A stretch of 57,109 bases of DNA, the filler included, from Dugesia japonica (taxonomy: Eukaryota): NCBI GenBank assembly GCA_001938525.1. It is 5 parts of 5 records of this genome, joined end to end, with 100 filler letters (N's around TTAATTAATTAA, not from the genome) between each part and the next. Parts side by side here need not be neighbours in the genome. Positions count along the whole stretch, not along the records: positions 48,826 to 57,109 come from MQRL01587631.1; 4 more parts are not named here. One strand, given 5' to 3'. The translations under genes and the position numbers were made by a program. Under the pieces are notes generated by a model, which had not been told where the DNA came from, searched no databases, and was given only the letters and a program-made list of their open reading frames with translations. This document shows positions 3,140 through 57,109 of this stretch, piece by piece. Position 1 is the first letter of the stretch; each line of letters begins with the position of its first letter.

Positions 3140-3479
3140 AAAGATAAAGATAAGAAAGATTAAGAAGGAAGAGAAATAGTGGTTGCCTACCGACCACACT
3201 CAATCACGAGTCATGGTATACTGCATCACAGTAAAGAGCTATTGGCTGTTTATTATTTCTGCTTGCATTTCAAATCTTACTTTTACGATAGAAGATTTAC
3301 TCTTAAGACAGAGCTTTATGATCTAACTTTCATGTTGACAACGAAGAAACAAATTACGTCAAAATTCCAGATATGGATTAATTATTTGAGTAGTCTAGAC
3401 ATGGTATTCGAATATAGAAAAAGAATTCATCATAGTAATGCGGATATGTTATCTAGACCAAGATACGGAGTATGTGTAC
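3140..3479 (+). pseudogene. Ty3/Gypsy RNase H fragment
   Basis: KELLAVYYFCLHFKSY...FTLKT...HSNADMLSR; cut off at an AGTAG-type terminus. Confidence 0.85.
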
Positions 3480-3560
3480 AGTAAGTAGATAGTGGTGTAC
3501 TGAGTCACCCCTTCCTCTGACGGGAAAAGTCTTTTGGCATGAGATTTTTGTCTTTTTTTT
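3480..3560 (+). mobile_element. Maverick/Polinton-type terminus
   Basis: AGTAAGTAGATAGTGGTGTA abruptly truncates the Gypsy RNase H frame. Confidence 0.5.
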
Positions 3561-4328
3561 AAAATTTGAATTTTAATGTTTAGTTTACATATACAAAAAT
3601 TAGTATCGTTGGACGACTAATTTGATGGCAGATCCATATATGCATTTAAACATTTGGTTAGATGGAACCGTAACAAAAACAATAAACAACAAAACGGTTC
3701 TACAGCGCCCATTTTTAATTTTATCGGCATTGTTCATACTTATGTATAGCGCATTAATGAAGACTTGAACGGATTTACATTTTTTTGATGCATCGCCAAT
3801 TCATATCAACGTGACGCAGGAATTTTACTAGAGAGTCAAAACCTGCCACCGATTGAGCGTGAGTATCAAAAGTGGGCAGATAAAGTGGAGCGTTGGCTGG
3901 TCCATCAACTCCTTCTCTCCGAGTTCATCCAGTGAGAATATTTTCAAAAATTACAAATCGTGTGGCATTATTAATATAACTAGTTTTGTGTTTGTCCTCT
4001 TCTTAATTGTATAAGGACATATGTACCATGCAATTTGATAAATTGTTTTTTATGTTAACTGTTTTAGTGAACTCTTCACAATCAAGGTCTGTCGCCCCAA
4101 ATAAGAAATTAAAGGCCGATAGCGAAAAAACTGGAATGACGCTGGACCTTTATCGTTTGTCAAAACAAAATTGGGAGACTTATGTGGCAGCCAAAAAGGC
4201 CAATAACAAAATGTAAAAGTGACTATGTTAGTACTATCGAATTGAAGCTGAGGTATCCCATTCTCAGGAATGAGACTGGGAAGCTCAACTTCAGTCGTTT
4301 GCAGATAACATTCGCTCTCTACATGACC

Positions 4329-6133
4329 GAGAAAACAAGCTTAGAGCAGCACTATAGAATTTTGGACCTAGTTTTTAAAAGAATTCAAGAATCAGGATTG
4401 AGAAGTAATCCAGAAAAATTTCATTTATTGCTTGCAGAAGTCAAATGACATGTCAAAGATAAGAATGGAGTCCGAACAAAAATTGAAGCGATAAAGAATT
4501 TTGGATGACCTAAATGTGTGAAGAACTTGAGAAGCTTTTTGGGATATGCAATTACTATAGACGATTTATTAATAATTATTCAAAAAAAGCTAGAAGCTTG
4601 GAGGATCTATGTTAAAGTAACAATAAAAAACTTGTGTGGTATGAAAATTGTGATAAAGCTTTTAATGAGATGAAAGAGGCATATTGAGCTTTCCAAATAT
4701 TAAAAAGAGGTTTTTAATAGATACAGATGCGAGTTTTGATGCAATTGGAGCAGTTTTATCGCAAATAGATGAAAAAGGTTTAGAGCTAGCCATTGCATAT
4801 GGGTCACATGCAATATCAGCTCATGAAAAGGGATATTGTATAACAAGAAAGGAATTATTGGCAATTTACTATTTTTGTGACCATGACTTTTCTTAGTAGT
4901 CTATATATGGTATTGGAATTTATACAAGGTGATAAACACACTAATGCAGATATGCTGTCGAGAATGAATTGTGGTACGTGTGTACAATGCTTAACATATC
5001 ATGAGAATCCAAAGGAAGGAAAAATAAAGACAAAAACTATTAATGGTATATCAGGCTCAGATACATATAAAGGGCAAAGTAATGTAGAAGAAATTGAACA
5101 GATAAAGAATGATATGAAAAATNAAACATGTAAAAAGTTTCGATTAATAGAAGAAATAATAAAAACAAAAGACGGCAAAATATGTATCCCGCCAGAAAAG
5201 AAAATTCAAATGGTAAAAGAAATGCATAATTTATTGATGCACGTTGGTACGGAAAATGTCATAAATTATTTGAAAAATGAATATGATATGGAAGATTTGA
5301 GAAAAACTGTGTCAAAAGTAATTAAAGAATGTACAGCGTGTTAAGTGAACAAAGTAACAACAGTTACAACAAAAGAGGAGACTATAAAATTAAAGTCTAA
5401 TGAACCATTTGAAAGTATTTATATTGATATATGTGGGCCATTCCAACAAACCGTAGGAAGAAAAAGATATATACATTTGCCATAATAGATAAATTTAGCA
5501 GATACATTTGCTTAACAGCCCTAGTTAAACAAGATGAGAAATCAATAAAGAAAACGATTATGGATAAATGGAAACTGAGATTTGGTGCTCCAAAAGAGAT
5601 ACATGTAGATTGTGGGAAGACCTTCGAATCAAAAGCCTTCAAAGAGATGACAGATTCAATGGATATAACAATTAGCTTTTCCCGTCCATATCATCATTAT
5701 ACGAATGGAATAGTAGAGCGGCAGTTCAGAATGATCAGAGATTACATCAATGCAACATTAAAATATAAAAAGAATAAAAATTGAGCAGAGTTAATACTAG
5801 AAATTGAATGCACACTAAATGCAACAAGCCAGAAGACTTTGGGGATAAGTTCAGCAGAAGTGATATTCGGTAAGAAAATACATAAAGAAAGATGGTTCCA
5901 TAATGGAGAAAAGAATGAAGAATCTGGAGAGTTGACACCAACAAAGAGATATTTTCAAGCTGGAGACGATGTGTTAATCAAGGTAGAAAACAGATCAAAA
6001 AACAAAGAAAGATATACAGGTCCATACGAGGTGATAAAACAGAATCGTAGAAGACGATACCTGCTGAAGAGTTCAGAAGGCAAGATTATTGAAAGAAATG
6101 TGGAATAGATTAAAAAATATTTTGAAGAAGGGG
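4329..6133 (+). mobile_element. Decayed Ty3/Gypsy pol (RT end, RNase H with internal deletion, integrase, GPY/F) and polypurine tract
   Basis: FLIDTDAS, KELLAIYYF, NADMLSR, HHCC (H..LMHVG...CTAC), YIDICGP, HVDCG, NGIVERQFR, YTGPY; PPT GAAGAAGGGG at 6124-6133 before a gap; many stops and frameshifts. Confidence 0.92.
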
Positions 6134-8068: not shown

Positions 8069-8424
8069 TCTGTAAGCAATTGAATGGGTTCACTTAAAGT
8101 CATCAAGACAGAAGCCCATGCCATACCAGGAATACCAAAATATGTTTTGCTTACTATAATAATCTTATTAATAATAATTTGATTTTTTAAGTTTTATAAG
8201 ATGAATATTTTAATAATAATCTATGCTTTTTATCAAAATAATTTTTGATTTGTTGATTATAATATTAAATAACTTTTATAATATTTTAAATAATTAATAC
8301 CACTTTCACTACTAAGTATTATTATAGAAGCCATTCATATGTTTTTCTTGCTATAATAATCATAATAATAATAATAATAATTTCACGATATTGATTCTAA
8401 AATATTATTTTAGAATCTTGTAAT

Positions 8425-10300
8425 TTGCATGAAGACTACTGTGACAGCTCCATTCACAAAAATGATTGCCAAGCTATAATAGAAGAATATTATAAAATCA
8501 AATATTACTGGATAAATTACCACGTTTGTCCTTCGTATGATACATTAGGATTAGGTACATATTTAAATTTTTGTAAGTTGCACGCACAACATATCACACA
8601 ATACACAACAAATAAAAAAGAATTGTTGTTGGAAATATAAGGTCCTCCATCAAAGAAAACAAAGCAAGACATTATTGTTATAGAGAACAGTGAAGAAGTA
8701 AAAAATGAAGAAAATGATGATGAAAAAAAGACTATATTAAAGCAGACTGAAAATAATGGAGAAATTATCGCGGGGTGCAAAATGGAACTTGAAAATAATA
8801 ATAAAATAGTGAAAAAAATCATTTTGAGTTGGATGATCTTTTGACGAACCAGTGATATAAACTTATTTATATCGTTGCCACTAAATTTTAAAACTGGATC
8901 TATCTCGATGGAACAATAGAGAAACAATTCTACCGGAGTTTTTGTTAGAAAAATTATTCAAAATAATAGATGAGTTGAAGCAAGTCAAAATTCAATGTGG
9001 AATAAATGTGGAATTTTTGAAGGAGGAAGAAGTAAAGACTAGTAGACTTTCAAACAGTTCCGTTCCTTTAACCAATAACTTTTTTGAAAAAAAATTAAAA
9101 TATTGAACGAAAAGATAGTAGTAAGAAGTGAGCTGGGTTCAAGCTGCATCTCAAGTAGGATTTTAGAAATCAATTTTAAAATTACTAAGATTTCAAATAT
9201 AAGCAGGCTTTCTGACAAAAGTTTTATTCCAACACCAAGAAACCTTGAAAAGAAACATACCATTGTTAATATCGAGAATAAGGATAACAAATGCTTTCTA
9301 TACAGTATTTTCCCAATTATCAAAAAGGATTAGGTTAATGAAAATCATAGTTATCGTGTGTCAATATATAGAAAATTGATGTCTAAACTAATATTTGATG
9401 AAAATAATTTACCGATGAAGCTGCGAGTATCCTAAAGTTTGAGAGACAAAATTCCGGACAAAATCAATATCTTATCCTAGAACTCTCATACAGTAGAAGA
9501 GGATGAAACACCCAAATTTAAATATCATCCACAGATCTGAAGTAGAAGATAGACAAAAAATAAATCTCTTGTTATTAGATGATGGTAACAAATATCACTA
9601 CACCGCAGTATTAAATTAATGACCAGGGACGTTAAAAAAATTGTGTCAGAATTCAATCAATCTGGTGCTCTAATTGTCTTAATGGATTCAGCAATAACAA
9701 TGCATACGAGAAAAATGAACCAATTTCTCACAAAATCAAAACTGGCACAACACTGTATAAAATTCCAACAGATCCTAATTTGGAATTTAGAGACTATTCA
9801 AAAACAATGACTCTTCCGTTTGTAATATATGCTGATTTTGAATCAGTATTACGAAAGGATCCTATTTATTATTAGAGACATTTACCCATTTCAGCAGTAT
9901 TGTTGTTTGTGAATAATTACTCGAATGAAGTTAAATATAGTCAGTTCATAGGAGATGACTATGCTTATGAGTTCTTGAAAGCAGTAGAAGAAATAAATAA
10001 GAAAATTGTATATCCCTATTTTATGAAAACAGCAAAAAGAAAATGAAAATATCACAAACTCAAAAAACTTTGTTTAATGCAGCTACTACATGTTATTTAT
10101 GTAAAATATCAATAGTGTAACCAGTTTGAGATCAAAATCATTTTACTGGAGAATTCAAAGGAGCAGCGTGCAACAAGTGTAATTTAAGTAGACAGGTCCG
10201 GTTTGAATTACCTGTAGTATTCCATAATTTAAAAGGATACGACCTGCATCATATTCTCAAGTATGGTCTCAACCCATTTCAAGATTGGAGTATTTCGTGT
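8425..10300 (+). pseudogene. Maverick/Polinton protein-primed DNA polymerase B, N-terminal half (copy 1)
   Basis: RSELGSS, VNIENKDNKCFLYSI, PFVIYADFES, HFTGEFKGAACNKCNL (endonuclease VII-like insert), PVVFHNLKGYD; colinear with 50130-53660; many disruptions. Confidence 0.9.
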
Positions 10301-13220: not shown

Positions 13221-14695
<1,475 letters not shown>

Positions 14696-21974: not shown

Positions 21975-22770
21975 ATATTTGTGAGAATAATTATTGGACA
22001 TAACTATTGATCGCATTTGAGATTTCATTAACATAAAGGAAAAGCTTCGATCAAAATAAAATGTATTTCTATAGAAATTCAAATTTTTTGACAATTGTCT
22101 TCTTCAGGAAAATGATGACTTTTTGAACAAGATTCAATACGATAATATATCTTTTTTACAAAATTCTTAATTTTCTATCACAATTTTATTGGTCTATTAA
22201 ATTAAAAAATTTTTATTTTAAAATTAAATCTCAAAAAATCTTTTTGAAACCTGATATCAACGTGATTTTCAATAATTACAATAATTAAAATTTTAAATTG
22301 ATAAAAGATCAATAAATTAAATTTTAAAAGAATTTTTTAATAAAAAATATTGAGAAAAGATTTTTTTTAATATGAATTGGGAGAATGTTTCTTAAAAATT
22401 GATAGAAAAAAATAATTTTATTTTACTATTTCAATATTTTAATATTTTGATGTTAATAAAATACATATTTTAAATGTTTTAATACTTTTATATATTAGTT
22501 TTTAAAAATTTGGAAGATTTTCAATTCGATTTGGTTAAAAAAGATTTTTTGAGATTTCATTTATAAAGAAAAAAAATTATAATTTAATTGACCAATAAAA
22601 TTTTGATAAAATCTAAAGAATTTTGTAACAAAGATCTATTATCGTTTTGAATCTATCAAAACGTTATCATCATATTCCTGAAGAAGACTATTGTCAAAAA
22701 TTTTAATTTCTTTAAAAATACATTTTATTTTGATCGAATCTTTTTTCGTTATTTTAATGAAATCTTAAAA
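21975..22770. mobile_element. Palindromic Penelope-type element with a degenerate hammerhead in each arm
   Basis: Arms ~22020-22245 and ~22542-22768 are inverted. Each contains TTCCTGAAGAAGAC.ATTGTC[A]AAA. Confidence 0.7.
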
Positions 22771-26955: not shown

Positions 26956-29900
26956 CTGAAAAAGTAAAAATATTAGTCCCATTTCATATAATATACTAAG
27001 GCACAGAAAAAATCTCCAAAAAGCTAAAAATATAATTTATGTATGCAAAATCCATTTCATTTTTAAATAAATTAATGTAATAAATTAAAATTCATACGAA
27101 AATACCCAGAATACTTTTAGTCGGTGGTCAGCAATAATTGTTCGATGCAATATATTCAGTGAAAAAGAATTTCTAACAATATTAATAAGAAATTTATTAC
27201 TAATAAGACATTGTAAGTACTCCTTAAGTAACATTAATTAATAGATGCTGATTTAAAAGAAATATGTATAAAATATGTATAAAACCAAAAGAGATGAAAA
27301 TTAAACAATTTCATTATCNAAAAAAAAAAAGAATTGCAAAACTCGAAAATTTCATTTATTTCATTTTGAGGTAAATAATCAATGTAAAGTTTACTAATAT
27401 TAAATATTCTTTCAATTATGTTACAAATATTTTAACAGTTAATGAAATAATCTGTAAAATTCAATCACTAATATACTCGGTGTCGGTTTAGAGGCTGGCG
27501 AGGTGTGGCGGCGTTACATGGCGCAAAATAAACTAGGGGCAACGAAGGCGGCCTAACTTTCTTAGAATATTTTTTAAGACTCTCATATATACACGTAATA
27601 TTGATACACAAGAAATACATTGCACCTTTCCCATATTCAACATACGTATCATATAAAATAACTTTTTGGCCTAAACGTTGGAGAAATATTTCAAGTATAA
27701 GCGCGCTCTTTCTTTGATCATAAAACTGCGCGCATTCCAACAATTTTATAACAATGAATTGCTTTTCGGAGAAGTAAATATGAATGTAGAATTATTGAGA
27801 AATGAAAGCCAAAAAAATGTCATGAAAATAATTTACGACCCTTAATTATTATGAATTATGTATTAATTCTATGTTTATTACTGTTTTTTAAAGTTAATAT
27901 TAACTATACTGGGCGGCTGAAAAAAATTTCCCTAGTGCGCCGTAGAAGCTAAAGCTCGCACGGAATACACTTAACATAGTAAGTGAATTTGCTTTCATTA
28001 AACTTATAAATTAAATTTATAAATTCTGAATTTAATAAAAAAATTTGAAACCTTTAATAATGTTAGGCATTCACACACATAATTTGTAAATTTTCAGTAA
28101 GTGTACTGTTTGAAAGGAAATATTTTGAAAAATGTTTAAAAATTTTTCGTTTTTCCGCTTCAACATTATTGATTCTCACGACCCTGGATTGTATATCTTA
28201 TTAATAAAATCGGATTACATCATACGCACTTTTAGTACTGAATTGCACTACATTTTTTACTTTTAAGTCATTGAGAAACCATTAGTAAAGAACATTTTCA
28301 AAATATTTGTATTAACTATAGCTAATTCTGTCTAACTCGATTTTATTGGAATAAAGAGATATAATGCAGATTAAAGGAATTTCTATTATTATTACCTCCA
28401 AGATATTTTAATTTTATTATGAGGTCGATTTTTGATTGGTTTAGGTGGGTTTTGTACAAAGTTTCCTCGGTAAGGTTGAATGAGGTCAATTTTTGGCTGC
28501 ATCATATGAATTTTGTCCAATATTTCCTCGGGATCGCTCGGTTTGGGTAATTTTTTGGGTGATTTGGTCGAATATTTTATCGGGATTGGTCAGTTTGGTT
28601 CATTTTTGAACGATTTGGATGAAATTTTCCTCGGAAATAGTCAATTTGGGTCAGTTTTGGATAATTTGATCAATTATTTACTCGGTTTAGGTAATATTGG
28701 TCAATGGTTAACTTGATTAATTTTTTGGGTGAATTTGGTTAATAATTTACTCGGGACTGATCAATTTGGGTAATTTTAGGGTAATTCGGTCAATTATTTC
28801 CTCGGGTTTGGTCAATTTTGGTCAGTTTTGGACGATTTAGTCAATTATTAAATCACAGTGGTCAGATTTTGGTTGACAGTTGTCAGAAATTGGTTGACAA
28901 TGGTCAGAAATTGATTAAAAGTGCTCAAATTTTGTATGATTCGGTCAATTATTTCCACAGCATGGATAAACTTAGTCAATTATTTACTCATGGTGATTGG
29001 TTTTGGGTGGTTTTGTGAAAATGGTCAATTATTTGCTCACGAGGGTAATTTTAGGTGAATTCGGTCAATTATTTCCTCAGGAATGGTTAATTTGGGTCAG
29101 TTTTGTAATATTTAGTCAACTATTTACCCAGTTAAGGTAATGTTTTTGTTAATTATTTACTTACAAGGAACAGTTTTAGGTGAATTTGAGTGATCATTTT
29201 CTCGGGTTTAGTCCGCTTGGGTTTAATTTTAAGGAAATTCATGATAAAAGTCGAATTTTTTAAAGTTTTTTAAAATTTTTTATTGGAATGTTTTATAGGG
29301 ATCCGGGTAAACCGTTTATGTTGTTTAAATAATATGAAAATTTAAAATTTTTTAAATGAAATTTTTATGGCAGTCTAGGTGGAACGTCTAAATTTTTGAA
29401 AAAATATGTTCTATATTTCAGATTTTAAAGATTTTTATACCAAACTTCTGAGAATTTTACGGCGATCATTTTTCACAAATAAAAATTTTTCAAAAAAGTT
29501 TTACTTCTCAAATAGGTTATAAAAGTGTCTATTCGATAGACAAATTTTCGCTGATTCCAAATATATTAACCTAAAATCGCCAAAGTTAATACTCGATAAA
29601 ATAAATGGGGTTTTGTGTTGAAAAAATCTCAAATTTTGACTTGTTGTACTCAATTTTCTCTGTATGGTTTCTAATTTGGTATTGTTTTACTCGGGGTGAA
29701 AAAGTAACTGTTAAAAGTTAAAATATAGTCTCGAGAAAAATGCTTCCTAACGAAGATGTACAACTGCCCTCCTGGATTTTGGTAACATTTTCCGAAAATA
29801 TCAAAAGTACCTCAAAATTTATCGAACCTGATACTATTCGATAGGAACTTTAACGGTGAGTACGAATAACACAGTTAAAATTACCAAACCTTATAGATAA

Positions 29901-32900
29901 AAAGTTATATTGAAAAAAACAAGTACTTAATTTGGGAGTCCCGGAGGAACATAAAAATATAATAATTTATTCGGTAAGGTCAATTTTGGGTATTTTTTTA
30001 GATGAATGTAGATGAAATTTTATTCTTCACCTGTCCTCAGTTATCAGAACTCTCTGCACAAGTGCTCAAACCTCAGAACTCTGCACTCCGTACACAAGAT
30101 TTCAGTTATCAGTGCTCTGCTTACAGTATACTGAATTTTAATTATCAATGGTGTTCTCACTCATTGCAAATCACTGTTGCTGGAATCAAAAATATGATAG
30201 TATAATCGTGTTTATCATATGTATTTTGATGATTTAAAAAATTCGACTTTTATCATGAATTTCCTTAAAATTCAACCCAAGCGGACTAAACCCGAGAAAA
30301 TGATCACTCAAATTCACCTAAAACTGTTCCTTGTGAGTAAATAATTAACAAAAACATTACCTTAACTGGGTAAATAGTTGACTAAATATTACAAAACTGA
30401 CCCAAATTAACCATTCATGAGGAAATAATTGACCGAATTCACCTAAAATTACCCTTGTGAGCAAATAATTGACCATTTTCACAAAACCACCCAAAACCAA
30501 TCACCATGAGTAAATAATTAACCAAATTCACCCAAAAAATTAGTCAAGTTAACCATTACCAAGGAAATCATTGACCGAATTAACATAAAAATTACCCTTG
30601 AGAGCAAATAATTAACCAATTTGTCCATACATAGTAAATAATCGATCAACATTACCCAAACCGAGTAAATAATTGACCAATATTACCTAAACCGAGTAAA
30701 TGATTGATCAAATTGTCCAAAACTGGCCTAATTTGACTATTTACGAGGAAAATTTCATCCAAATCGTCCAAAAATGAACCAAATTAACTATTCCCGAGAA
30801 AATAATAGACCAAATTGTCCAAAACTGACCCAAACCGAGCAATTCCGAGGAAATAATTAACCAAATTCACGCAAAAAATTAACCAAGTTTGTCTAAACCG
30901 AGTAAAAAATTGATCAATTCACCCAAAAATCGCCCAAACCGAACGATCACGAGGAAATATTGGACAAAATTCATATGATCCAGCCAAAAATTGACCTCTT
31001 TCAACCTCACCGAGGAAATTTTGTAAAAAACCCACCTAATACCAATAAAAAATTGATCACATTCGACCTCTCTGGGCAGAAATGCTAAAAGCGGCCAAAA
31101 GTCATTTTTTAAATTATCATTTTTGAATGAGTTTGGTGTTTTTTTTTATCAACTATGGATATTAATTCCTGTTTTATATTTTTTTAATTGAATGATTCTG
31201 TTTAAGAAGTAAAGCGATGATTTTATTGATGGTTAAAAAATTCAAAAAAATGATTTCTTTTTATTATTTTCTCATTTATTTGAGGTTTTAAATTTGTTAT
31301 TATTAAATGATATTATTTGTTTAAATAATTAATAAATAATTAATAATAAATCATTTTTGTTTAAATAAATAATTATGGAAAGCTCAAGTCTTTTAACTGA
31401 CAACCACGCCAAAATAAGTGTAAAAAAAGATGATCGCCAGAAGATTTTTGCAAAGCCACCATCTTCAACACAAGAATTGCATATCCCAAAACCAAGTTTC
31501 TTCGCGGGTTCATCTGAAGCAGCTGATGAATGGATATAGATGACAAAAGAATTTGCTATGTTTAATCAAATGGAGTTATCATTTGGGTTGGATATGTTAA
31601 TGAGACGAGATGCGAAAGAATTAGTGGTGGAAAAATGGAAAAAGATTTAATTTTGACGAACGAGGTCTGAGAAAAATGCTTTCGCGAGTCATTTGTGATT
31701 TCAGAGACACTGTTGTATAAAATAACACTTTTATCGAAGATCAAACAAAACTCAACTGAAAAATATCGTAATTTCTGATTAAGAGTCAGAAAAATAGTAA
31801 AAAAAAGTTTATGCGAGTAAAAAAACTATAGATGAAATTGCAACAATATTTGTAATTAATGGCGTAAGGAGTGAAAAATTGAAAGAATCTTTTGTTCTTT
31901 TACCAGAACTTACTGATATGCAAAGACGAAAATTAGCCAACAATTCGGATAAATAACCAACATATTCTATTAATGTGATATAAAACAGCTATGCGATACT
32001 GTGAAGAAGAATGATTATCAGTCAAAGTTTTGTAAAACTCATCCACGAATGAATACTCAAAATGATTCAAGTACAAGAAGTCGGCCAATTGTTTTCAAAG
32101 AGGATCAGTATCGAGCAAATGAAATTCAAAACCAAAAACGGGCCCAAAACAATAGATTTCCTCGATACTCCATGAAGTGTATTGCCAATAAGCTTTATTA
32201 CAAAGCCCAAGGAAAAAATTCTCGAGAGAAGGTTTAGCACCGGGATCATGTTTTTTGCTGTGGAGATATAAGCCATAGAAGAATGAATTGTCCATTACAA
32301 GACAAATGTTTAATATGTGGAAAAGAAGGTCATAATTTTCGAGATTGTTCACTAATTCGATAAAGAAATTCTACATTTGCGAAAATTTTGTGTATTGCAG
32401 AAGATGATGTTATCTTAAAGTGGTGAACAAATTGAATATATATACGATGTTCCTTCAGACGATGATAAAAAACGATCAGCAACCCACTACATCCATCTTT
32501 CCAGTGAGGTTGCAATAACAGAGAAAATACTGAGAAATGAAAAATTGATGTTCGATGGTAAGATGTTTCAGGAGAGAAATGGAAGAGAATGAAGTTTATT
32601 GCGTTACAATGGATATGATATTGAGATGTTGTGGGATTCAGGAGCAGCAATATCAGTTATGGTGCGGATATGTGGAAAAGAATTGGATCACCTGATTTAT
32701 CGTCGCTACACATTATTCTAGCAAGAGTTTTTTCTGAAAAAAGAGAACATTGTACCGGGAAAACTAAACTGAAATTACAATGGAATGGGAAGGGAATAAA
32801 GAAAGAAGTAATAATTGTTAGAAATATTTCACCCAAATTTATCGTAGGTATTGATATGATAAAGCTATTTGGAATGAAAATTACTGAAGTTGGTTTTATT

Positions 32901-35900
32901 AACTCAAACGATGGAAATCTATTTTTTAGATAATACAGAAAGAGTGAAAAATGACTTTAATACTTCAAATAATGTCAGTCAAGAAGTAAGAGAAATGATA
33001 GAAACTTAAAAAGATATATTTATGGCATCAACATGTGATATTGGATATACGAAACTAATGCAGCATCACATTGAAACGACATGACCTCCAATAATGATAA
33101 ACCCGAGAAGACAGCAATGCACTTGGAAAATAGATTGATGAATTGTTAGAAAATCAAATATTATAAGTTGCAGAATTCCACGGAATTCTCCATTGGTAAT
33201 TGTACCAAAGAAAGATGGGACGATAAGAATGTGTCTTGATCTTCGGAAATTGGATTCAATTACAGAAAAGTATTCGTTTCCAGTTCCAGATATTCAATTA
33301 TTATTAGATACGCTTGAAGGATCAGTTTTATTTTCTTCTTTAGATTTAGAGCAAGCATATCATCAAATTGAACTAAGCGAAGAATCAAAGCAGAAGACGC
33401 TTTTAGTACAAATATAGGTCAATTTTGTTTTAATCGAATGCCCTTTGGGTTATGTACTGCACCAGCAACATTTCAAAACTTGATGCACAAAATATTTGAA
33501 GGAATGTTGTACAAAGAAGTATTAGTATATTTGGATAATATTTTAATATATGGTGAAACTAAAGAGGAGCACGACAAACGAGTTGGTAAAGTTTTTTAGC
33601 TTTTAAAAGATGCGGGTTTAAAAATAAATTCAAGTAAATGTGTGTTCAATCCCAAGAAGCTGTAATTTTTAGGACATACAATTAACGCTAAAGGTGTAGA
33701 GACAAATGATGAAACCATCAAAAAAATTAGAGAAGCCGTAACGCAAAATTGCGCCACCTAAATACGAGCGTTCTTAGGATTAACAAATTATTACAGGCGT
33801 TTCATAAAAGATAAGGTTTTACTTGCAGCACCAAAATATGCAAAGACGACAGAACAAGAAAAGAACATTGAATGAACAAAAGAATGTGAGGATAGTTTAC
33901 AATCTTCGAAGATAAAATTGTGTGGTGCTCCGATTTTGACTTTCCCAAATAATAGGGCGAAATGATATTGGATACTGATGCTAGTTTCGGAGCAATTGGA
34001 AGGGGATTTGATTTAACTAACGGATAATGGATTGGAACAGGTCATAGAATATGGATCTCAAACTTTAAACAATCACGAAAAGGGATATTGTGTTACTCGC
34101 AAGGAATTATTAGCACTGCATGAGTTTATGATATATTTTAAACACTATTTGTATGGAAAGAAATTTAGAGCAAGAATGGATAATAAGGCATAAAAGTTTG
34201 AGTTTGATGATGAGATACTGATTATCAATGATGGAGACAAAAAAAATTGTACTGGCAGTAGAATCGATACCCGACCTTATAGATTTCATACACGATGAGT
34301 TATGTCATGCCGTAGACCAAAAACTGACGGAATATTTGAGTGTAAGTTATTTTTGGCCAAATATGCAAAGAAATGTAGAACATCAACTAATAAAATGTAT
34401 TATATGTAACATGCGTAAAACGTATACTGGGCGAACAAAAGAAATTTTTATTCCAAGAACAGAATTTGGGTCATTAAAACAGGTTATCATGGATATCGCT
34501 TACTTTCCAGAAATGAAAACCAAAAAGAAAAATGTTATCGTCTATGTTATCGGTATAGTAAGTTAGTGTCATTCTTAGCGTTAAGTAAACAGGGTGAAAC
34601 ATCGGTAGTTGAGGCAATAAAGGAAAACTGGATATATCGTTTTGGTAAGCCAAAATTATTTTTGACAGACATAGCAAATATTTTTGAGAGAAAGTTAATG
34701 CGGTCACTTGTAGAGAAGTTTGGGATTCAACAAGGATTTTCGCCCCCATACCAACATCAATCAAATGGTTTAGCAGAAAGAAATATTAGAACATTGCGAG
34801 ATATGATGGTACCAACGATAAAGAACGACTGCACGGAATCAGGTTGAGACAAATTACTTCCACGAATTCAGTTTGTAATAAATGCAATACAACAAAAATC
34901 GACTGGTCTATCTCCTTTTGAAATTATTTTTGGAAGAAGAATAGTCTTACACGGATTACCACAAGAAGGAAATCCAAAACACGAAGAAATGAAAATTTAC
35001 AGATGAAAATTTACAGAAAGCATTTCAAAAATTAAGCAAATACGAATGTGAAAAGCGAACGNCCAGACATTTTGAAGAATGGGAAAAAGTATTAATGAAA
35101 GTAGAACCACACAAGTTAAAGAAAGAAGATTTCAGGTATGAAGGCCCTTACAAAATTAGTAAATTTATAAGTCCACATCAGGTGCTTATGAATTATGCAG
35201 GACAGCTTAAACTCAGAAGACTTGAATGGCTGAAAAAAATTGAAAATGAAAATTAGAAAGAGAGAGAACAGTTATAAATCATTTATAAAATGATATAAAG
35301 TTTTAAATTTGTTATTATTAAATGATATTATTTGTTTAAATAATTCATTATTAATCAATAGTTTTTTTTTAAATAAATAATTATGGAAAGTTCAAGTCTT
35401 TTAACTTTTGAGATTTTAGGGAATAAATGAAGCAAAAATTGATACCTTATATAATATAATGTTTAATCTTATTCTAATTCTTATTTTAAAAATATAGAGT
35501 TCAGTTTTTTAAAAACAGTGAAAAATTTTTTTTGAGTCTTTAATAAAAATGATCTTATAGTAAGAAATAACCATAAAAAATTTTCAAAAAAGATTATCTC
35601 ATACACACACCATGAATTAAGAGCAGAATTTTATTTTTTAGTTTTAATAATACTCTTTAAAATCCACGTAGATACTCACAAATTCAATTTTATGATTTAA
35701 AAGATATCTAAAAATTTTTTAAAATATAATATTATGTAAGGTATCAATTGCTGCTTCAATGTTTCGCTAAAATTTGAGATAAAGGAAAAAATAATTTTAA
35801 AAATTCATTTTTTTTGAATTTTATAGCCTGCTTCAAATAAATTATCGTTTTATTTCTATATTATTCAATTAAAACATGCATAAAACATGTATTAATATCC

Positions 35901-37979: not shown

Positions 37980-39555
37980 TTTCATTTATATTTATCTTAT
38001 CAAACATGTGTTGTAGTAGTAAAATAAATGATGTAAAAAAATATTAGTTTTGATTTGCAAAATGAATTACCAATTGAAGATCTACCTAACATGGTGGAAG
38101 CGGTAAATACCGATTTTATTACGGAGAGGTTATTTCGAATGTGTTTTGCAGAGGATATGATATTGAGAAATACATCAAGCGGTGTGAATTGTATTTTGAA
38201 GCTAAAAACATCACCAATGTGAAACAAGAGGAAAGATTAGTCTCTTGTTTGCTAGATAAAGATTTGTTGGAAGAACATACAAAGACGTTAAAAAAAGTTA
38301 AAGGTTTTCATGCTCGTTTACGTATGGCATTTGAGAAAGAGAAAGATGTTATTAAAGATTTTCAAAATTTGATTAACTACAGGCGTGGAAATGAAGAGAT
38401 TCNNNNNTATTTTAAAAATGTAAAAGATTTAGTAGAAAGATTATTTACAAATAAAATTTTACTGAGGAAAATATGGTAGCAGAGATGCTAGTTTTTTGTT
38501 CAGATAACAAAAATAGTTGAAGAAGTAACTTTGCGAAAACAAGAAAATTTAGAAGAAATTGAAGAAACAATATCGTTAGTATATCGAGTAGAGAAAAACA
38601 GAGATAAAGTCAATGCAGTTAGAAGTTACGCGAGAGTTACAAGTCGAAATTATCAGAAACCAGTTAATCATACTGTGAATGTGGAGCAAAGAAAAGAAAA
38701 ACATAATATCGAATGTTGGTTATGCCATAAGATCGGTCATACTATAGCAAATTATCCGACAAAAAAAATGGTAGAGTGCTGGATTTGTCATAAAAAAGAA
38801 CATATAAGTCGAGATTGTCCAAATAGAAAACCAACAAAATGTTTTGGTTGTGGTAAGATTGGCCATATTAAAAGATTATGTCAGGAAGTGAGGTGTAAAC
38901 GATGTGGTAATGGTGAACATAGAGCAGTAGAGTGCTACACAAACTTGAAAATGAAAAAAACAAGTGAGAAATTTATGACTGCAGAAAGATCAAGAAACAG
39001 ATATAACCGAGTACATGCGATTGAAGACGAAGATGTCTGAACAAACGATGAATATGAGGAAGTATATGAAAGTTATTCCGAAAGGCAGTACCCAAAAGGT
39101 AGGGCTCCGCCAGTAGAGGAGTTGGTTGGAGCCATACATAGTTAAATGAAGTTTGTAATTATCCTCAAAGAGTCGAAAAGTGGGATGATATCGGGATATC
39201 GACAGAAAAGTATACATGTTCTTAAAGAGGAAAAATTTTGCGGATGATAGAAAAGTAGAATGGGTTGAAACATTTGAAGCAGAAAAGAAAAAATATATTT
39301 CGTATCATAAATTGAAAGGCAGTTTAAGTGTTACGATATCAATTCAAGGAAATAAGGTCAAATTTCTATTAGATACAGGGGCTCGAATTAACGTGATGAG
39401 TTTGAGTGGTTGTAATAAATTACGAGAAGTAAATTTAGAAATGAGTGATGAAAGATTGCGTTGTGCAAATAATAGCACATTTGAAATTGTTGGGAAAGTT
39501 AAAACCGGAGTGATAATTGTTGAAGTTTGCAAAGAGGTTACCTTATTAGTTGCTG
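37980..39555 (+). mobile_element. Ty3/Gypsy family A 5' portion: LTR end, PBS, gag (four CCHC-type knuckles), aspartic protease
   Basis: PBS TGGTGGAAGCGGT at 38092-38104; four CX2CX4HX4C knuckles (first degenerate); LLDTGA. Truncated at a spacer; left LTR boundary is approximate. Confidence 0.92.
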
Positions 39556-39655
39556 NNNNNNNNNNNNNNNNNNNNNNNNNNNNNNNNNNNNNNNNNNNNT
39601 TAATTAATTAANNNNNNNNNNNNNNNNNNNNNNNNNNNNNNNNNNNNNNNNNNNN
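39556..39655. other. Artificial scaffold spacer
   Basis: 44N + TTAATTAATTAA + 44N. Confidence 0.97.
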
Positions 39656-40430
39656 ATCGGGCAGTCTTGATATTTTGTAAGATATTTATGCATGTTATGG
39701 GCATTCTTGATATTTTGTAAGATATTATTAAAAGTTATTTATGGGCAGTCTTGATATTTTGTGAGATATTTTTACAAGATATCGGACAGTCTTGGTTGAC
39801 GCATTATTGATTATTTCTTTATATTTTACTTTAGATGGGACAGTCTTGATATTTTGCAAGGAATGGACAGTCTAAAATTCCCAGGCATGTGATTTTCAGT
39901 GCATGTGTTGCAGTCTTGTGGCATTTGACTTGCATACATTATAAAAAAATAATAAAAATTCCCAGGCACGTGTGGCTGTATTGCATTCATATTGCATCAA
40001 TATTGCATTCAGTATTAAAACATGGAGGTGGTCTTGATATTTTTTTATATCATTGCAAGATATTAGACAGTCTAAAATATATCTATCGAAAAACTTCAAA
40101 GAGGGGAGTGTTTGAGATATTTACATGATACAATATTCAAATTAAAACTTTTCTTTACAAAATGATAAAAAACAATGAACTTTTTTCATAAAAAAAACAT
40201 ATAGGTCATGCAATTTTTAATGGAAAGTCTCATTAGTGTTGCAATTTTTAATGAAAAATCTCATTGACGATGCAATTTGAAATAATAAAATTACATAACC
40301 GTTGCAATTTTTAATAAACAATCTCTTTAGGTTTACAATTTTTAATAAACAATCTCATTAGCGAAGCAATTTTCCATTAAAAAACATATTGAGAATGCAA
40401 TTTATCCGAATAAAACATATTGGTGATGCA
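39656..40430 (+). repeat. Maverick-end-type subterminal repeats
   Basis: GGGCAGTCTTGATATTTT units as at 47965-48145 and 57070-57090, then ~30-bp CTCATTAG.G.TGCAATTTT units as at 53805-53925. Confidence 0.65.
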
Positions 40431-50129: not shown

Positions 50130-53100
50130 TACATTCTGAATTTTGAGAGGTCAAGTACAGTTTGCTCGGACGATCTAAACAAACTATCCCTTTATCGAGA
50201 AGAACAACAAATAAATCATCATAATGTTTTGTTTTTTTAAATCCAGCTTTTGATGTATATGTTATCAGCTTCGTTGCTGAATTACATAAGCGCAGATTGA
50301 TCCTGTTCTTTAGATTCTACACTACAAGTTTCTATATAAACTGTTGTTTAACAGTTTATCATAATTTCTATCCAATTCCGTAACACAATTTGATCTGAGA
50401 ACTGTGTTAGTATTGATGTAATTCTCGAATATTGAAGCCTGACTGAATTTTACTCCTTGATGAACCTCTATTCCTTTAACTCCTAAATTTAAATACATCT
50501 GCAGAAATCTCAGGGCACTATATAATTATTCTTGGAGTAGTGCGTTAACATTAATTTCTTCAATTTACAACCTGGAGCGCTTCTATGATCTGCTGCAACC
50601 GGTAAATCATTCAAATAATCATGAATATATGCTGTCTGCTTCTAGAGTGTATCCATATGGTAAGGAATCTAAGTCTGCATTTTTACACTGTTCCAATACC
50701 CTATCTAATCCATCATAGTCACATTTGAAGTTAGCAAAGGGCAACCTTTGACTAAGCGCCCAACCATATAGATTATTTATATCTATATACAACAAGTCAA
50801 CATTTTCACTAATAGCAACATAGTGCTTGTTAACGAATGTTAACCCTCCACTTATACCTCCTTCGAAAAAGATATACATATCGTTATCTTGGAGCAACTC
50901 AATCGGTTTTTTAATGACATCAACGCAAATGCACATGACATTCCAGGTATTCCAAAGAAATTCAACGGCTCCAAGTTGTTGTGTGCTAAAGACTTTGCAC
51001 GGAATTGCTGGAAAAAATATGCTAACAAATACACATCTAGCTTTAAGTATAAGATCATATAATCCATCAAATTTGTACATGAAAATATTTCTCACATCGA
51101 TAAGGCTTTCTCATAATCTTCTCTACTAATATCCTCCCATTTTGGTAGCATTTGTTTTGTTTCTTCAAGAACCTGTAAACTTGTTGCAAAACTGTACGGA
51201 AATATCCCCTTTGACTTGGCAATAATCTGATTTCTAAACTACTCTGTAGTCAAAGGTGTTGCTTTTAAGGATTTAACAGCAGAGTCCAATGAGAAATTAA
51301 TGAACTGATAGCTGTCGATGAATTTAATTGTTGTTTGATTTTGCCGTACAATTAATTATAGACATTTTTCAGATGTTGTTGGGATGCAAAATATTGTCCA
51401 ATACTTAAACTTATTAATACCATACTTGAGGATATGATGAAGATAATATCCTCAGAAATTATGAAAGACCACTGGTAGTTGAATATACAGTTCTCTACTT
51501 AAATTGCATTTGTTGCATGCTGCTCCTCTATATTTCCCTGTGAAATGTTCATGGTCGCGAACGCGATCTCTTATTTCCTTCTTGCATAAGTAAAAGGTTT
51601 TTGCAGCTTTGAATTCTTTATATAGATCTATTGTTATTATACTTTTCTTTTTTTTATTCGTTTCATAATAAGGAAACACAATGTTTTCGCTTATTTCCTC
51701 CATAGCCTTTAAGAAATTATACACACAGTCATCTCCAATAAACTGTCTGTATGTTGATTCATTTGTAAAATTATTTATCAACAACAGACCAACCGAAACG
51801 GGTAAATGTTTCTGGAAATGCTTCTCGTCATGTGGTAAAATAGACTCAAAGTTCGCATATATCACAAAAGGTAGTGTTATAGTTTTTGAATAATCTTAAA
51901 AAATTAAGTTCTTCTCAAATGTCATCGTATACATTGTAGCACCTGTCTGGATCTTTTCACATATTGGTTCATGCTTTTCATATGCTACTTCATTTTGAAT
52001 CCATTGAGACAGTTAGGACACCATGTTGATCAAATGCGAACACTCTGTTTATTATTCTGATTCATTAGTCCATTTAGATTCATTACTGTAGTGTAATGAA
52101 ATCTGTTGTCATTTTCCAGTAATAACTGATATATTTTTTCTCCACCTAGCACTTTTGAATGATGTTTTATATCCAAATTTGGATGTTTCATGATTATTTC
52201 ATCTTCTTCATTCTCCACTGATTCTTGATTCCACAATAGTACATTGAAGGATAGTCCTGGATTATTCTTTTCGAACTTTGGTATATCAATCAGTTTCATT
52301 GGTATATCAATATTGCATCAAAAATAAGCTCCGAAATGTATTTTTTATATAATGTTACGTGGTTTTTATTCTTTTGTACAACTTAATCACGTTTGGTGAT
52401 AGCAAGAATACTGTAAATAAAACAGAAATTGTCATCATATTTAATGTTTACAATTGCTCTTTTCATTTTTAAATCTTCTTTGTTGGAATATAACTTTTCC
52501 TGAAAGTCGAAAACTATTTGCAACCTTTGTAATTTTGAAATTAATTTCAAGTATTCTGTTCAACATCCAACTGGAGCCTAATTCGCTTCTTATTGTTATT
52601 TTCTCATTCAATTGATTGATCCCCTCTTCAAAAAAGTTACTAGTTAATGCAACGGCTCTATTTGATATCCTACAAGTTTTAAACTCAAATTCTTTTTCAT
52701 CAGCAGTTGTTGTTAACCTTTTGATCTCAACATGTACCCAAATTGTATTTTAACTTGTTTTATTTCTTTTATTGTCTAAAATAATTTTGCAACTATTGCT
52801 TCTAGTAACATTATTTTACGACAATTCCATCTTGACACATCTATTTTAAATATCCTTTGACAGCGATACAAATCCAATTCTATAATAACTCCATCATCCA
52901 CAGTATTATTTACTAATCCACTAACTTGATTATTTTTTTCCATTTCTTCTACATCCATTAATTGTTGTAACATGATATCTTCTTCAGTATTCATTATCAA
53001 TCCACCAACTGGATTATTTTCATCTTCCATATCAATGAGCTCAAGTAACACGATATCATCTTCATTGAATTCATCAATTATTTCAAAACTGCTCCAATCA

Positions 53101-53660
53101 TCTGATTCAATATTGATTGCATCTTCTTCTTGTACAATATTTAGTGTTTCTTCTTCCGGTTGCAAATTGATGATTTCTTTAACATATTCAATTACTTTAA
53201 CATGTTCATCCTTGATTGTTATTTCTTGAATAAAAATCATTTCAATAGGCTCATCTTTGATTATCATTTCTTCAACGTCATACTCAATAACAATCGCTTT
53301 AATAGGCTCATCCTTGATTATTATTTCTTTAACATCATCTTCAATAACAATTATTTCAACTGGTTCATTCTTAACTGTTATTTCTTCTATCTTATTTATC
53401 TTATTTACTGATGCTTCATAAAATTTACTATCCATTTGTCTATCTAATATTGATTTTAAAATAATTTATTTTCTTTTTACTAAAACAAGTCAAGTGTTTC
53501 TTATCTGTTCTATATAACTTAAGTAGTCACCTAAGCCTAAAACCTTACAATTAGGACACACAAAATAATTTTTTCCATAAAACCGTTGGCCATAGTATCC
53601 TTCCATGATACTATGTCAGTCACCATTGTGATTCACACTTGCGCAATGGTTGTATAATTT
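50130..53660 (-). pseudogene. Maverick protein-primed DNA polymerase B with N-terminal Cys/His domain and acidic linker
   Basis: RSELGSSW, IYANFES, RDHEHFTGKYRGAACNKCNL, PVVFHNF, FIDSYQF, KGIFPY, GISGGL, YIDINNLYGWALSQRLP, TVLDLSK. C-terminus missing. Confidence 0.93.
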
Positions 53661-54389
53661 TCAATGTTCTTAAATAATTTAATAATAATATAATAATTTT
53701 AATAATCACATAATGATTTTAATAACATTTTTTTCTTTATAAAATATATTAGCTATGATACTTTTCCATAAAAAAAATATAAGAGTGGTAATTTTTAAGA
53801 AAAGAAAATCTCATTAGTGTTGCAATTTTAAGTAAAAGATCTCATTACCAATGCAATTTTAAATACAAAATATCATTGACGATGCAATTTTCCAAAATAA
53901 AACATATTGGTGGTGCAATTTTCTTAGAAAAATGATAAAAGCATAGAACCTTTTCATTTTATAAAAACAGAGCATTTCTTCATAACATAGAGCATTTCTT
54001 CATAATATCGTAGCATGAAACATACCATAATTGTTTTTCATAATAATTTTTTTAATAAAATTTAGCTTAAAAAAAAATTATTATTAAAATTTAACTTATA
54101 AAACAAATATTTAAAAACATAATAAAATCAAAAAACTAACGTGAATCTCCATTCACGATCATCTGAGATCCTTCACTTCAGTGTCTCATTTCTCAAAATT
54201 CTAAATTACATAATTAATTTATTAATAATAAATAATAACAATCTTACAGCATTCATAGTTTAAATAAATCTTCTTCCATCTTGTTTATATGAATTCATGA
54301 TAAATCAAAAAAAAAAAGTTAATATTGTTAATAATAATAATAAATAACTTTAAGCTCTCTTGAATTGTTCACTAGTTTTGTTTTTCTAG

Positions 54390-54725
54390 TTTTTCAACCA
54401 TAATAAACAGTGTTGACCATCAGTAGTTGTAAATGGATCTTGAAATTGGATTTAATTGTAAACTATTGGTTTAGATATTTTCGATAAGTGTGACAACAAC
54501 ATTGATGGATAACAAAGTGCTAATGGATCGAATACTAATATTTAAGCAGGTTGATTGTAAACAGTTATCCAATTTTCTCCATCTAGATTTGATGTATGAG
54601 TATTGACAATTAAAGCATGGTTTACTGGAATATATTTTGGAAGTTTATCTAACTCATAAACACCTAACCATGCTGATCCAAGCCACTTTGATGCAATCCG
54701 ATCAATCTGAATAGTACTATTAAAA
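54390..54725 (-). pseudogene. Adenain-like cysteine protease of Maverick
   Basis: WLGVY..DKLP...IVNTHTSNLDGENW...FDPL...QFQ...DGQHC. The catalytic His and Cys positions are substituted and there are internal stops. Confidence 0.85.
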
Positions 54726-54786
54726 TAAAAATCATTAATGTAATAACACTTACTTCACAACATGTACCAATTACACAACATATTGT

Positions 54787-56002
54787 TTACACTAATACTT
54801 TTTCGTTTTCTTTAGTCTGAATTTCTTTTTCAAATACTTCATACATTATAACATATGCCGATGTTGCTAAAGTTTTGGCAAACTTGATTTCCAATCTCAA
54901 ACTTTCTTGTTGAAGTAATTGACTCTGATTTATATCAAAATCTGGAGCAAGAACAAATGTAAAGAAATGATAAATATCATTAAAATTTTGAAGTGTTATT
55001 CTACAATTCATATTATTATCCAAATATCCCATATTTCGTACAATATAGATTGCATATATGCTGTGGCAAAATTATCGTTTGTAAAATCTTGAGTATATAT
55101 TTCTCGATAATCAGTGTTTTTTGTCAAGGAAACGGAAGCAGCATCTAGATTTTGAAATGCTGAATTCGAGCTTTTATAACTACCATTATATTGTTCTCCA
55201 CTTTAAAATGTAACTAAAATAAAGCTAGGTAATCGACGATCACCAAAGATTTGTTCCTTATAAAACGATGAACTATCTTTACTGATTACAAATGTAACGA
55301 CTTCCTTGTTTCTTATTGGATAAACAGCATTTTTAGGCCCATTTGACGAGCAACGAGTACTGAGGGTTCAACTTGTGCACATCTAACCATTAATTTTGCA
55401 TCTAGTATTACATATTTAGGTTGATTGGCTACAGATTCCAAACAAATATCAGCATCTGTTTGTTTCAATCGAATATGAACATTGACACTTGAAATAAGGT
55501 ATTTCGATTGATCCATGAAATCGAGTTGCAAAGAACTACATAGAGATAATTCTTTTGATTTTGCAATATAATTTTTTCTATCTGCTTCTGATCCATATCC
55601 CATTACTGTAAGACATATAATTTAAATATCGCTATTATAATTAATTATAGTTTCAATCAATGCTTTGTGAAGATCCATTTCCACCTTCAATTTTGAAATT
55701 ATAAAACGAAAGTAATAGATCCTTTAAAAGCGTATACATCATATAATTACAAGAAACTACATCATGAGTGTCAGTCATATCAACCACCTTCACCTTAATA
55801 TACAATAAAGCATCATTCAAATCAAAATATTCTGTTTGAGATCCATTTATAAAAAACCTCTACAACACTTTGTGATTCAGAAATTGAATTCATAGGAAAG
55901 ACATCTTCAAAAGTACCACTTTCAATTACAGCTTGATGAGATGGTCAATCAAAAATACATAATTCAGTTTTACCGCAAATCATTTTTCATATATTGTTTC
56001 AT
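54787..56002 (-). pseudogene. Maverick major capsid protein (double jelly-roll)
   Basis: CGKTELCIFD.PSHQAVIESG, NGSQTEYFDL, LQLDFMDQSKYLISSVNVHIRL, RLPSF, FTFVLAPD...LRLEIKFAKTL. Confidence 0.88.
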
Positions 56003-56004
56003 GG

Positions 56005-56385
56005 CTACTCATTTGTTTGTTTATAAGTGATCCATGAGATCCATGTTAGCATATTAGTTATTTCAGATGGTATTTTATTAATTTTACTTTGCGGTAATAT
56101 GCTTGCTACTTTTGGAATCATACTGGTTACTCTGCTAGGTAATGATGACATAATATTTCTAAGTTCAGCTAATGCATTAGATTTCAATGTGGGTAATATT
56201 TTTCCGTCATTAGCTAGTACATCATGAGCTGTTTTCCTACCAAAATAACCAATACGTTTAAGAATTGGTAAAGCAAATCAACCTATTGTTCTCAACCAAC
56301 CAGATCAATACTGTTTTCGAAGAAAGTAAGGTAATTCTCCGCCTGCTTGACTAGTACTATACAATGAAAGAATATCAGGATTCAT
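56005..56385 (-). pseudogene. Maverick core-like protein (PM-type)
   Basis: MNPDILSLYSTSQAGGELPYFLRKQY*SGWLRTIG*FALPILKRIG...HDVL; QxGG and QxGxG motifs; lies between the minor and major capsid genes. Confidence 0.75.
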
Positions 56386-56596
56386 TATGTAGTTTTCTAA
56401 AATGTAAAGTTAAATAAGTTTTTGAATGTTTTGGAAACTTGATTAATTTTCCGTTATCATCGCGTATATTAATTTCTATATTATTGATACATGATGTTGC
56501 AATATGTAAATACATTGGATTCTCGACTATTATTTGTACTACTTCATCAGTTTCATGCTTTTCTATCCATACTGTTTTCAATAGAGGTACACTAAC
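56375..56596 (-). pseudogene. Maverick minor capsid (penton/PX) C-terminal part
   Basis: VPLLKTV...NPMYLHI...INNIEINIRDDNGKLIKF...YLTLHFRK; the 5' part is replaced by an insertion. Confidence 0.85.
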
Positions 56597-57109
56597 AGTA
56601 GGGGGATAGTAGCGCACTGCGGCAATTTTTTTAAAGCAGTTATCGAGGGGGACCCCCCCCCGCCCCCCGGGGGGGCTCGGAAACACATTACGTCGAGCTG
56701 CGTTTTTTAATCGATAATTATTGATCTGATTGATTATTGATTTTTGATCTGATTGATTATTGATCTGATTGATTATTGATCTGATTGATTATTGATCTGA
56801 TTGATTATTGATTTTTGATCGGAAAATTTTTTTTTGATCGGATCAGACTTTCTTTGATCGAAAAAATTTTTTTTCATCGGATCATTTTTTTTGGGTTATT
56901 TAAAAAAAAATATTTTTGGCTGGAAATTCAAAAAAAAAATTTTTTGGCGGGAAATTAAAAGTTTTTTATTTCAATTGAGGAAAATCTTTTTAATATAAAT
57001 AAATTTAATTAAATTAAATTAATTTATTTTGCAAGAGACGAGGGGAGTCTCTATATTTATGTATGAGATGGGGCAGTCTTGATATTTTTTTAAGATAATA
57101 TTACAAGAT
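56597..57109 (+). mobile_element. Maverick/Polinton-type terminal region inserted in the minor capsid gene
   Basis: AGTAGGGGGATAGTAGCGCA, G/C homopolymer runs, 16-bp TTATTGATCTGATTGA tandem array (~56717-56815), TTGGCGGGAAATT. Confidence 0.65.

Follow-up and report, generated by a model that had tools for sequence, protein, structure and literature searches.

A tandem repeat in a broken Maverick polymerase gene of Dugesia japonica raises the question of whether the protein it encodes was built to engage the SUMO system of the host, or whether the repeat is simply one form taken by a changeable protein linker. The window, meaning the whole stretch of 57,109 nucleotides that was analysed, contains two broken copies of the gene for this protein-primed polymerase (pPolB), and the repeat lies in copy 2.

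The element and the layout of its pPolB

The pPolB of copy 2 is encoded on the minus strand. Its exonuclease/HNH (endonuclease VII)/polymerase part (50132..52000, minus strand), broken by stops and frame changes, contains a match to PF02945 (endonuclease VII), and the polymerase part is 54% identical to intact P0005, a PF03175 protein; the homology stops at 50132. Towards the N-terminus follow a broken vOTU protease domain (52060..52490, minus strand, limits approximate, by homology) and a broken TP (terminal-protein, D1) domain (52500..52883, minus strand, limits approximate, by tblastn to intact relatives), which has a stop at 52776-52778 and a frame change nearby. The N-terminal Cys/His module (53466..53678, minus strand) contains one stop and two paired frame changes. 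Its counterparts in copy 1 and in four intact relatives can be aligned to it, C12, H17 and C41 being invariant, and zinc binding is predicted from its residues. By homology the gene is the protein-primed PolB of a Maverick/Polinton, broken in copy 2, and the TP and vOTU parts of such an element are recognised from the model of the relative L022 together with homology of the window over both parts. The N-terminal linker of a Maverick pPolB, where the original prediction had placed the array, is borne out as its location by homology, Pfam and the model of the relative.

The remainder of the element lies beyond the N-terminus of pPolB, also on the minus strand. A broken gene at 54392..54721, with 26% identity to an ORF of L038 (E 2e-8) and no Pfam match, is probably the Maverick cysteine protease gene. 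Next to it is a broken gene at 54790..55983, probably for the major capsid, which is 40-59% identical in pieces to ORFs of ~405 aa in L003, L005 and L022; it has no Pfam match and its identity is presumed from size and position. ORFs of the same relatives match, by tblastn, two parts of 56083..56596: 56385-56083, probably the core-protein gene, and 56596-56381, probably the last ~70 codons of the minor capsid gene, names which we likewise assume. The probable minor capsid gene is cut short at 56600-56960, where a palindromic GC-rich sequence precedes tandem repeats of 16 and 19 bp; another element probably ends here. L003 and L005 encode an rve integrase (E 1e-12) and a Pox_A32 ATPase, ORFs which had no match in the window, where the element ends early. 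Of the terminal inverted repeats that, with a 6-bp target duplication, mark a Maverick/Polinton, no long one was found in 49000-57109, and self-comparison of the window revealed none joining the ends of the element; the copy is a fragment. By gene content and sequence the element is best described as a fragmentary Maverick. Intact relatives also encode a small TBP-like protein (PF00352; L003:11333-11779, E 5e-18; L005:10321-10764, E 2e-17).

Elsewhere, the window contains an EF-1alpha gene with introns at 13250-14695 on the plus strand (Pfam GTP_EFTU domains), which marks the host as a eukaryote, remains of decayed LTR retrotransposons (RNase H, integrase, gag knuckle, protease) at 3164-6108, 32625-34847 and 38090-39611 that are unrelated to the Maverick, and large inverted-repeat/foldback elements with internal tandem repeats at 28419-31062, 40436-42945, 22016-22769 and 43386-46952.

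The first 410 residues of L022 were modelled with AlphaFold2 from 76 sequences (pLDDT 91). The model consists of a folded Zn-like module, a disordered linker, a TP fold and an OTU fold, in that order. The Cys/His module (residues 1-85) is folded with pLDDT ~90, and linker residues 89-103, flanked by well-folded domains, have pLDDT <50. The fold of the TP part is that of a Y-family little finger (VIA Z 8.2 over 90 aligned residues, rmsd 2.4), while OTU structures are matched by residues 243-378 (Z 6.8 over 96 aligned residues, rmsd 3.6); Foldseek against PDB alone returned nothing at E<=0.001. The array is predicted to lie N-terminal to the TP domain, a placement made by homology to L022 and not from a model of copy 2 itself, and the predicted domain order is Zn-like module - linker - TP - vOTU - exo/HNH - pol. 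The Cys/His module belongs to no Pfam family and is duplicated in some relatives (P0024, P0025 and P0126 are cited); a profile search with it gave five matches, one with a new identifier.

Much of this architecture is known. In the available text of PMC11071308, polinton pPolB has the order TP-vOTU-EXO-PALM, with the little-finger fold assigned to TP and the OTU fold to the vOTU protease, and cleavage between TP and vOTU is hypothesised. The intact relative L022 has the same little-finger-like TP, followed by an OTU-fold protease, exonuclease and polymerase; in the present clade TP is preceded in addition by a Cys/His module and a linker prone to repeats. That addition is not described in the available text, in which neither 'zinc' nor 'SUMO' appears. 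Both HNH-bearing pPolBs and the OTU domain have already been described, in the parts available of bioRxiv 10.1101/2023.08.22.554363 and PMC8502044. Like the HNH-containing pPolB2 Polintons of the former, as far as its text is available, the present gene has an endonuclease VII/HNH insert, and it resembles the adintoviruses of the latter, in the part accessible, in that Drosophila-associated adintovirus 2 gives the best fold match among viruses (E 3.7e-17) and a named adintovirus PolB is among the sequence matches at 30% identity. In contrast to both groups, its closest relatives are metagenomic elements, at 39-54% identity over 376 aa.

The tandem array and its motif content

The array (53178..53384, minus strand) is a 57-bp repeat of four degenerate 19-codon units running from 53384 to 53178, with unit limits set by codon. 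Units 1 (53384-53328) and 2 (53327-53271) are full-length at 57 bp, and units 3 (53270-53226, 45 bp) and 4 (53225-53178, 48 bp) carry in-frame deletions; TRF reports an array at 53229-53387 with period 57, 2.8 copies and 78% matches. Four units with psi-K-x-E had been predicted and are real, but the repeat ends at 53178 and not at 53166. Each unit holds one psi-K-x-E site (K codons at 53372, 53315, 53258 and 53213). Unit 1 is made of two related halves of 9-10 codons (17/27 nt, p=0.0002), a SUMO half and a SIM half that are thus mutually related, and contains the strict SIM IIVIEDD at 53354-53334 on the minus strand. Further along the linker on the same strand are a pair of 9-codon acidic repeats (53103..53156; 20/27 nt identical) and two 26-28 codon acidic repeats (52905..53066; copies at 53066-52989 and 52988-52905). 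The latter two had also been noticed beforehand and are true duplications, with 60/84 nt matching and a protein score reached by 0/5000 shuffles; they include one SIMr-type and one SIMa-type match. The copy 2 linker is a nest of duplications of 9, 19 and 27 codons.

Motifs were scored with the published patterns quoted in the available text of PMC3395311, namely [IVL]KxE, the SUMO acceptor consensus, and SIMa, SIMb, SIMr and V/I-x-V/I-V/I. The [IVL]KxE consensus is satisfied by all four array units and by one site in copy 1. Unit 1 has a SIMa match and unit 4 a bare core (VKVI), and no published SIM pattern was matched in units 2 and 3. The array had been described as one of SUMO sites and SIMs together; the acceptor motif is indeed present in 4/4 units, but the strict SIM occurs in unit 1 only and there is no regular alternation. 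Against shuffles, four psi-K-x-E sites compare with 0.7 expected (p=0.005), a value that loses weight because one event was copied four times, and the SIM count is at shuffle level (2 vs 1.84). Shuffled single units contain psi-K-x-E in 17% of cases, and site and SIM together in 9%.

These motifs could form a SUMO module on the TP that was selected in this lineage, in which SIMs would bind SUMO or SUMO-loaded Ubc9 and the neighbouring lysines would be SUMOylated; it would dock the TP-capped genome where SUMO is concentrated in the nucleus, or else titrate SUMO-dependent silencing, and the number of units would set its valency. We consider this possible, at appreciably less than an even chance. 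It is favoured by the codons for K and E, in which change is synonymous only (third codon position) in all four units, and by the reading psi-K-x-E-P at three of the four sites; the presence of a strict SIM in only one unit of four, and the 9% with which both motifs arise in one unit by chance, count against it. The pN/pS of units 1-2 is 0.20/0.50, and is <1 in all six 12-codon pairs, though with very few sites. The units differ from one another at 5-11 of 36 nt, mostly more than expected from the decay of copy 2, which is ~7% per site as estimated with wide error from 5 stops in 376 codons; the array is thus likely older than that decay.

Copy 1, a diverged, broken and truncated pPolB on the plus strand (8401..10300), is composed of a Zn-like module, a ~70-aa linker, TP, vOTU and HNH; its Cys/His module is at 8422-8637 (plus strand), and it has 66% nt identity with copy 2 over 1273 bp. 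As had been stated beforehand, its linker carries a basic patch together with IIVIE and VKNE in the motif PPSKKTKQDIIVIENSEEVKNEE at 8644-8712 (plus strand). Local alignment of the whole linkers of the two copies was not significant (p=0.36), and the only words of at least 4 residues that they have in common are IIVIE and VKNE. The chance of such sharing in shuffles is P 0.12 for two words and 0.024 with one of 5. That these two words are common to copies only ~66% identical in DNA is a point in favour of a selected SUMO module. A third copy suspected near 40150-40450 was rejected, since inspection by eye showed no match in coding sequence and only non-coding 31-bp repeats are in common; these, at 40149-40460, reappear just upstream of pPolB at 53731-53932.

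Linkers of the wider pPolB family

Relatives were selected by polymerase and not by motif. A search with the conserved middle of the protein (376 aa) gave 337 proteins of greater length, with identity of up to 54%, and 54 metagenomic loci were examined. For the region before TP, 282 sequences were reduced to 207 with a TP match, 149 with >40 residues before TP, and 113 that were non-redundant (6 from the subclade of the window, 14 other close and 93 distant), a set whose power is lowered by rough TP limits in the distant members and by several close relatives that have no true N-terminus. Observed and shuffle-expected psi-K-x-E sites were 0/0.4 in the subclade, 1/1.2 in other close and 14/16.6 in distant regions, and the 20 close linkers left when 6 duplicates were removed from 26 had 1 against 0.92 expected. 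The Song core, SIMa, SIMb and SIMr were at or below shuffle level in all three sets. Of six ad hoc SIM patterns tried, one was enriched (5/20 close linkers vs 1.7, p=0.012), and a relaxed post hoc pattern was found in 2/6 subclade linkers vs 1.6 expected; these shuffle tests are conservative if SIM selection shaped the composition. A psi-K-x-E array and a SIM occur together in no relative, which also argues against a SUMO role for the array. With the motifs not above shuffles in the 113 regions, a result that largely amounts to the refutation named in the original prediction itself, a SUMO/SIM scaffold or decoy is unsupported as a Maverick feature. The repeat is real and a variation on known pPolB architecture, with SUMO function possible but not supported as a family trait.

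Other properties of the linker are widespread. Basic NLS-like patches were found in 16/20 close relatives against 3.8 expected and were enriched in all three pre-TP sets, with no NLS match in that part of the copy 2 linker which lies inside the ORF. Significant tandem repeats at the linker are present in 8/20 non-redundant close relatives, with units of unrelated sequence. Repeat turnover at the linker of relatives is thus observed, as are the position and the repeats of the array, and on these sequences tandem duplication appears to be the way in which the linker arm changes across the whole clade. Distant pPolBs carry C2H2 fingers, repeated RGRP AT-hook-like motifs and Rho_N/SAP-like domains before TP, and such varied modules are in line with a general tethering role. 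At several pPolB 5' ends, AT-rich stretches resembling spliceosomal introns were seen by eye (L005:1-550, L012:1-1180, L015:1-1160, L021:1-460), with a repeated short coding unit between them in L021, again by eye; gene calls such as P0007-P0012 are therefore truncated.

A tree built by a quick method groups the window with P0005-P0012 (support 95), adjoining P0020/P0022 (89). In P0005 a basic patch and FIVVES, an acidic-flanked hydrophobic run, align to copy 1 (p=0.003, the best of ~50 comparisons). P0020, P0022, P0320 and P0322 have, at N-terminal residues ~125-165 and after a basic patch, four 9-aa tandem units with V-I-[ED]-I cores (VIEI/VIDI in P0020/P0022) followed by Ser/Pro, without psi-K-x-E. 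Judged by its motifs this is the cleanest poly-SIM look-alike of the set. An independent array of four SIM cores, kept in 4/4 full-length members of the P0020/P0022 cluster seen, favours a selected SUMO module, as does a SIM-like stretch found by eye in 3/3 subclade lineages with the full linker visible. Set against this, the P0020 and P0022 linkers are near-identical and would count as a single event, and subclade linkers are simply more acidic than others (0.11-0.39 vs 0-0.15). In this cluster the N-termini of the two lineages are almost the same despite divergence of the polymerases, a hint that the module has been exchanged.

A broader form of the same idea is that one Maverick subclade repeatedly armed the N-terminus of its genome-linked TP with SUMO-engaging motifs, steering the incoming or newly primed linear genome to SUMO-rich nuclear sites, or shielding it within them, with valency set by repeat number. 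Its cases would be NLS + SIM (copy 1, P0005), the four-SIM array (P0020/P0022) and the SUMO-site/SIM array (copy 2), and we hold it to be rather unlikely. According to the available text of PMC12751080, viral SIMs occur in ICP0, K-bZIP, LANA and BGLF4, and SIMs are loose and quick to arise; their loose, fast-evolving nature and use by viruses would suit a SUMO module here. As in RNF4 poly-SIM, PML, SLX4 and DAXX, treated in the same available text, psi-K-x-E sites and hydrophobic-acidic runs lie in a likely disordered region. The motifs of those proteins and of the viruses were, however, shown by binding or mutation, whereas the present ones are recognised in sequence, and unlike multivalent SUMO/SIM proteins the array has one strict SIM and no family conservation. 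No description of SUMO motifs in Maverick/Polinton pPolBs was found in the openly accessible literature searched.

Probable origin of the array and proposed role of the linker arm

Copies of this pPolB family are numerous in the host: in one run, 8660 contigs match the 3.6 kb at 50200-53800, most of them 90-99% alike. Joints of these sister copies in contigs and reads skip 102-195 nt inside the array, so that unit number varies among sister copies. Introns were rejected as a cause, the ends not being splice-type in the alignments listed, and the skips were taken as unit-number variants. Three RNA runs gave 34, 470 and 21 reads matching the pPolB region. None of the 525 was >=99% identical to copy 2, indicating that their source is another strain or copies other than this one; transcription of the family is light, with reads traceable to sister copies and none to copy 2. 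The 470 reads of one run are mostly first mate on the plus strand, an orientation that is sense to pPolB in most stranded libraries.

On balance, and by a little more than an even chance, we favour the array being a lineage-specific tandem expansion of a flexible, nuclear-targeting tether on the TP, its SUMO/SIM likeness being lineage-specific and not conserved. In favour of this are the nested duplications of the copy 2 linker, the unrelated repeats in 8/20 close relatives, the varying unit number, the lack of SUMO/SIM enrichment, the NLS-like patches, the disordered linker and the TP and OTU folds of L022, and the NLS of the adenovirus TP; against it stand the two words shared by copies 1 and 2, the synonymous-only change at K and E with its low pN/pS, the one enriched ad hoc SIM pattern, the SIM cores of P0020/P0022, the alignment of P0005 to copy 1 and the missing NLS match in the copy 2 linker. 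A short acidic-hydrophobic unit would have been duplicated in tandem inside a hypervariable linker between the Cys/His module and the predicted TP, lengthening a flexible arm with the priming domain on one side and, on the other, the zinc-binding-like module together with the import signals. Cleavage by vOTU would leave module, linker and TP attached to the linear genome at its 5' ends; there the module and the basic patch may help in import into the nucleus and in tethering to chromatin or DNA. If the array is N-terminal to TP, a point absent from the original prediction, and vOTU cleaves as proposed, the array would travel with the genome-linked TP and not with the polymerase. The psi-K-x-E lysines may well become SUMOylated in the nucleus without being the reason for the array, and a SUMO docking role predicted from the motifs is possible. 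The adenovirus TP carries a bipartite NLS, according to the available text of PMC8036708, and resembles the present arm, within what that text covers, in having basic import signals on a genome-linked priming protein; there TP is a separate gene, whereas here it is the pPolB N-terminus with a variable linker.

Alternatively, the units could build a small beta-meander or beta-roll of antiparallel strands, the hydrophobic runs providing the strands and K-D-E-P the turn, so that the motifs would be buried or structural. Single-sequence AlphaFold2 places five strands over residues 26-69, the best-scoring part (pLDDT 45-54), and this agrees with such a fold. The mean pLDDT of 36.7 and pTM of 0.29, the uneven in-frame deletions in units 3 and 4, the varying unit number, the net charge of -39 over 178 residues and the lack of a PDB sequence match at E<=10 make it improbable.

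The array lies in an ORF of 219 aa (52776-53435, minus strand) that begins with ATG, and which had been said to stay open while the rest of polB is broken. It is an internal piece of the pPolB frame, with homology running on upstream of its internal Met start and an end at the stop inside the TP domain. The frame has 19 breaks (9 stops and 10 frame changes, at approximate positions) in ~1190 codons, among which a longest gap reaching 231 codons has P=0.31. Singled out afterwards, the 219-aa stretch has 0 breaks against ~4.5 expected (P 0.01-0.025), but by the longest-gap measure its openness is not significant, and the stretch is long without being telling, the case for it being weak. No homologs of the piece were found among 428 candidates of 120-384 aa at E<=0.001, in Pfam or in ESM Atlas (no usable match, residues 14-100), and scans of viral_contigs yielded no relative. 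A further idea is that decay of the polymerase left the ORF intact as a gene in its own right, of the host or of the element, with the function of a SUMO decoy. It might draw on the ATG and, if singled out, the unbroken run (P ~0.01), but with that longest gap, an internal Met start, a stop inside TP, no homolog of 120-384 aa and 0/525 RNA reads at 99% in three runs, there is no evidence for an exapted decoy gene, and we judge it most improbable.

On present evidence, then, the array is an ordinary linker expansion with suggestive, unproven motif content. As an expansion of the tether it draws attention to the anatomy of the clade, in which the priming domain is preceded by a Cys/His module and by an arm that changes fast, bears NLS-like patches and is prone to repeats; both would stay on the genome ends. 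Such an arm is a natural site for host-adaptation motifs. If the SUMO motifs are functional, they would be the first link between a Maverick and the SUMO pathway in the literature searched.
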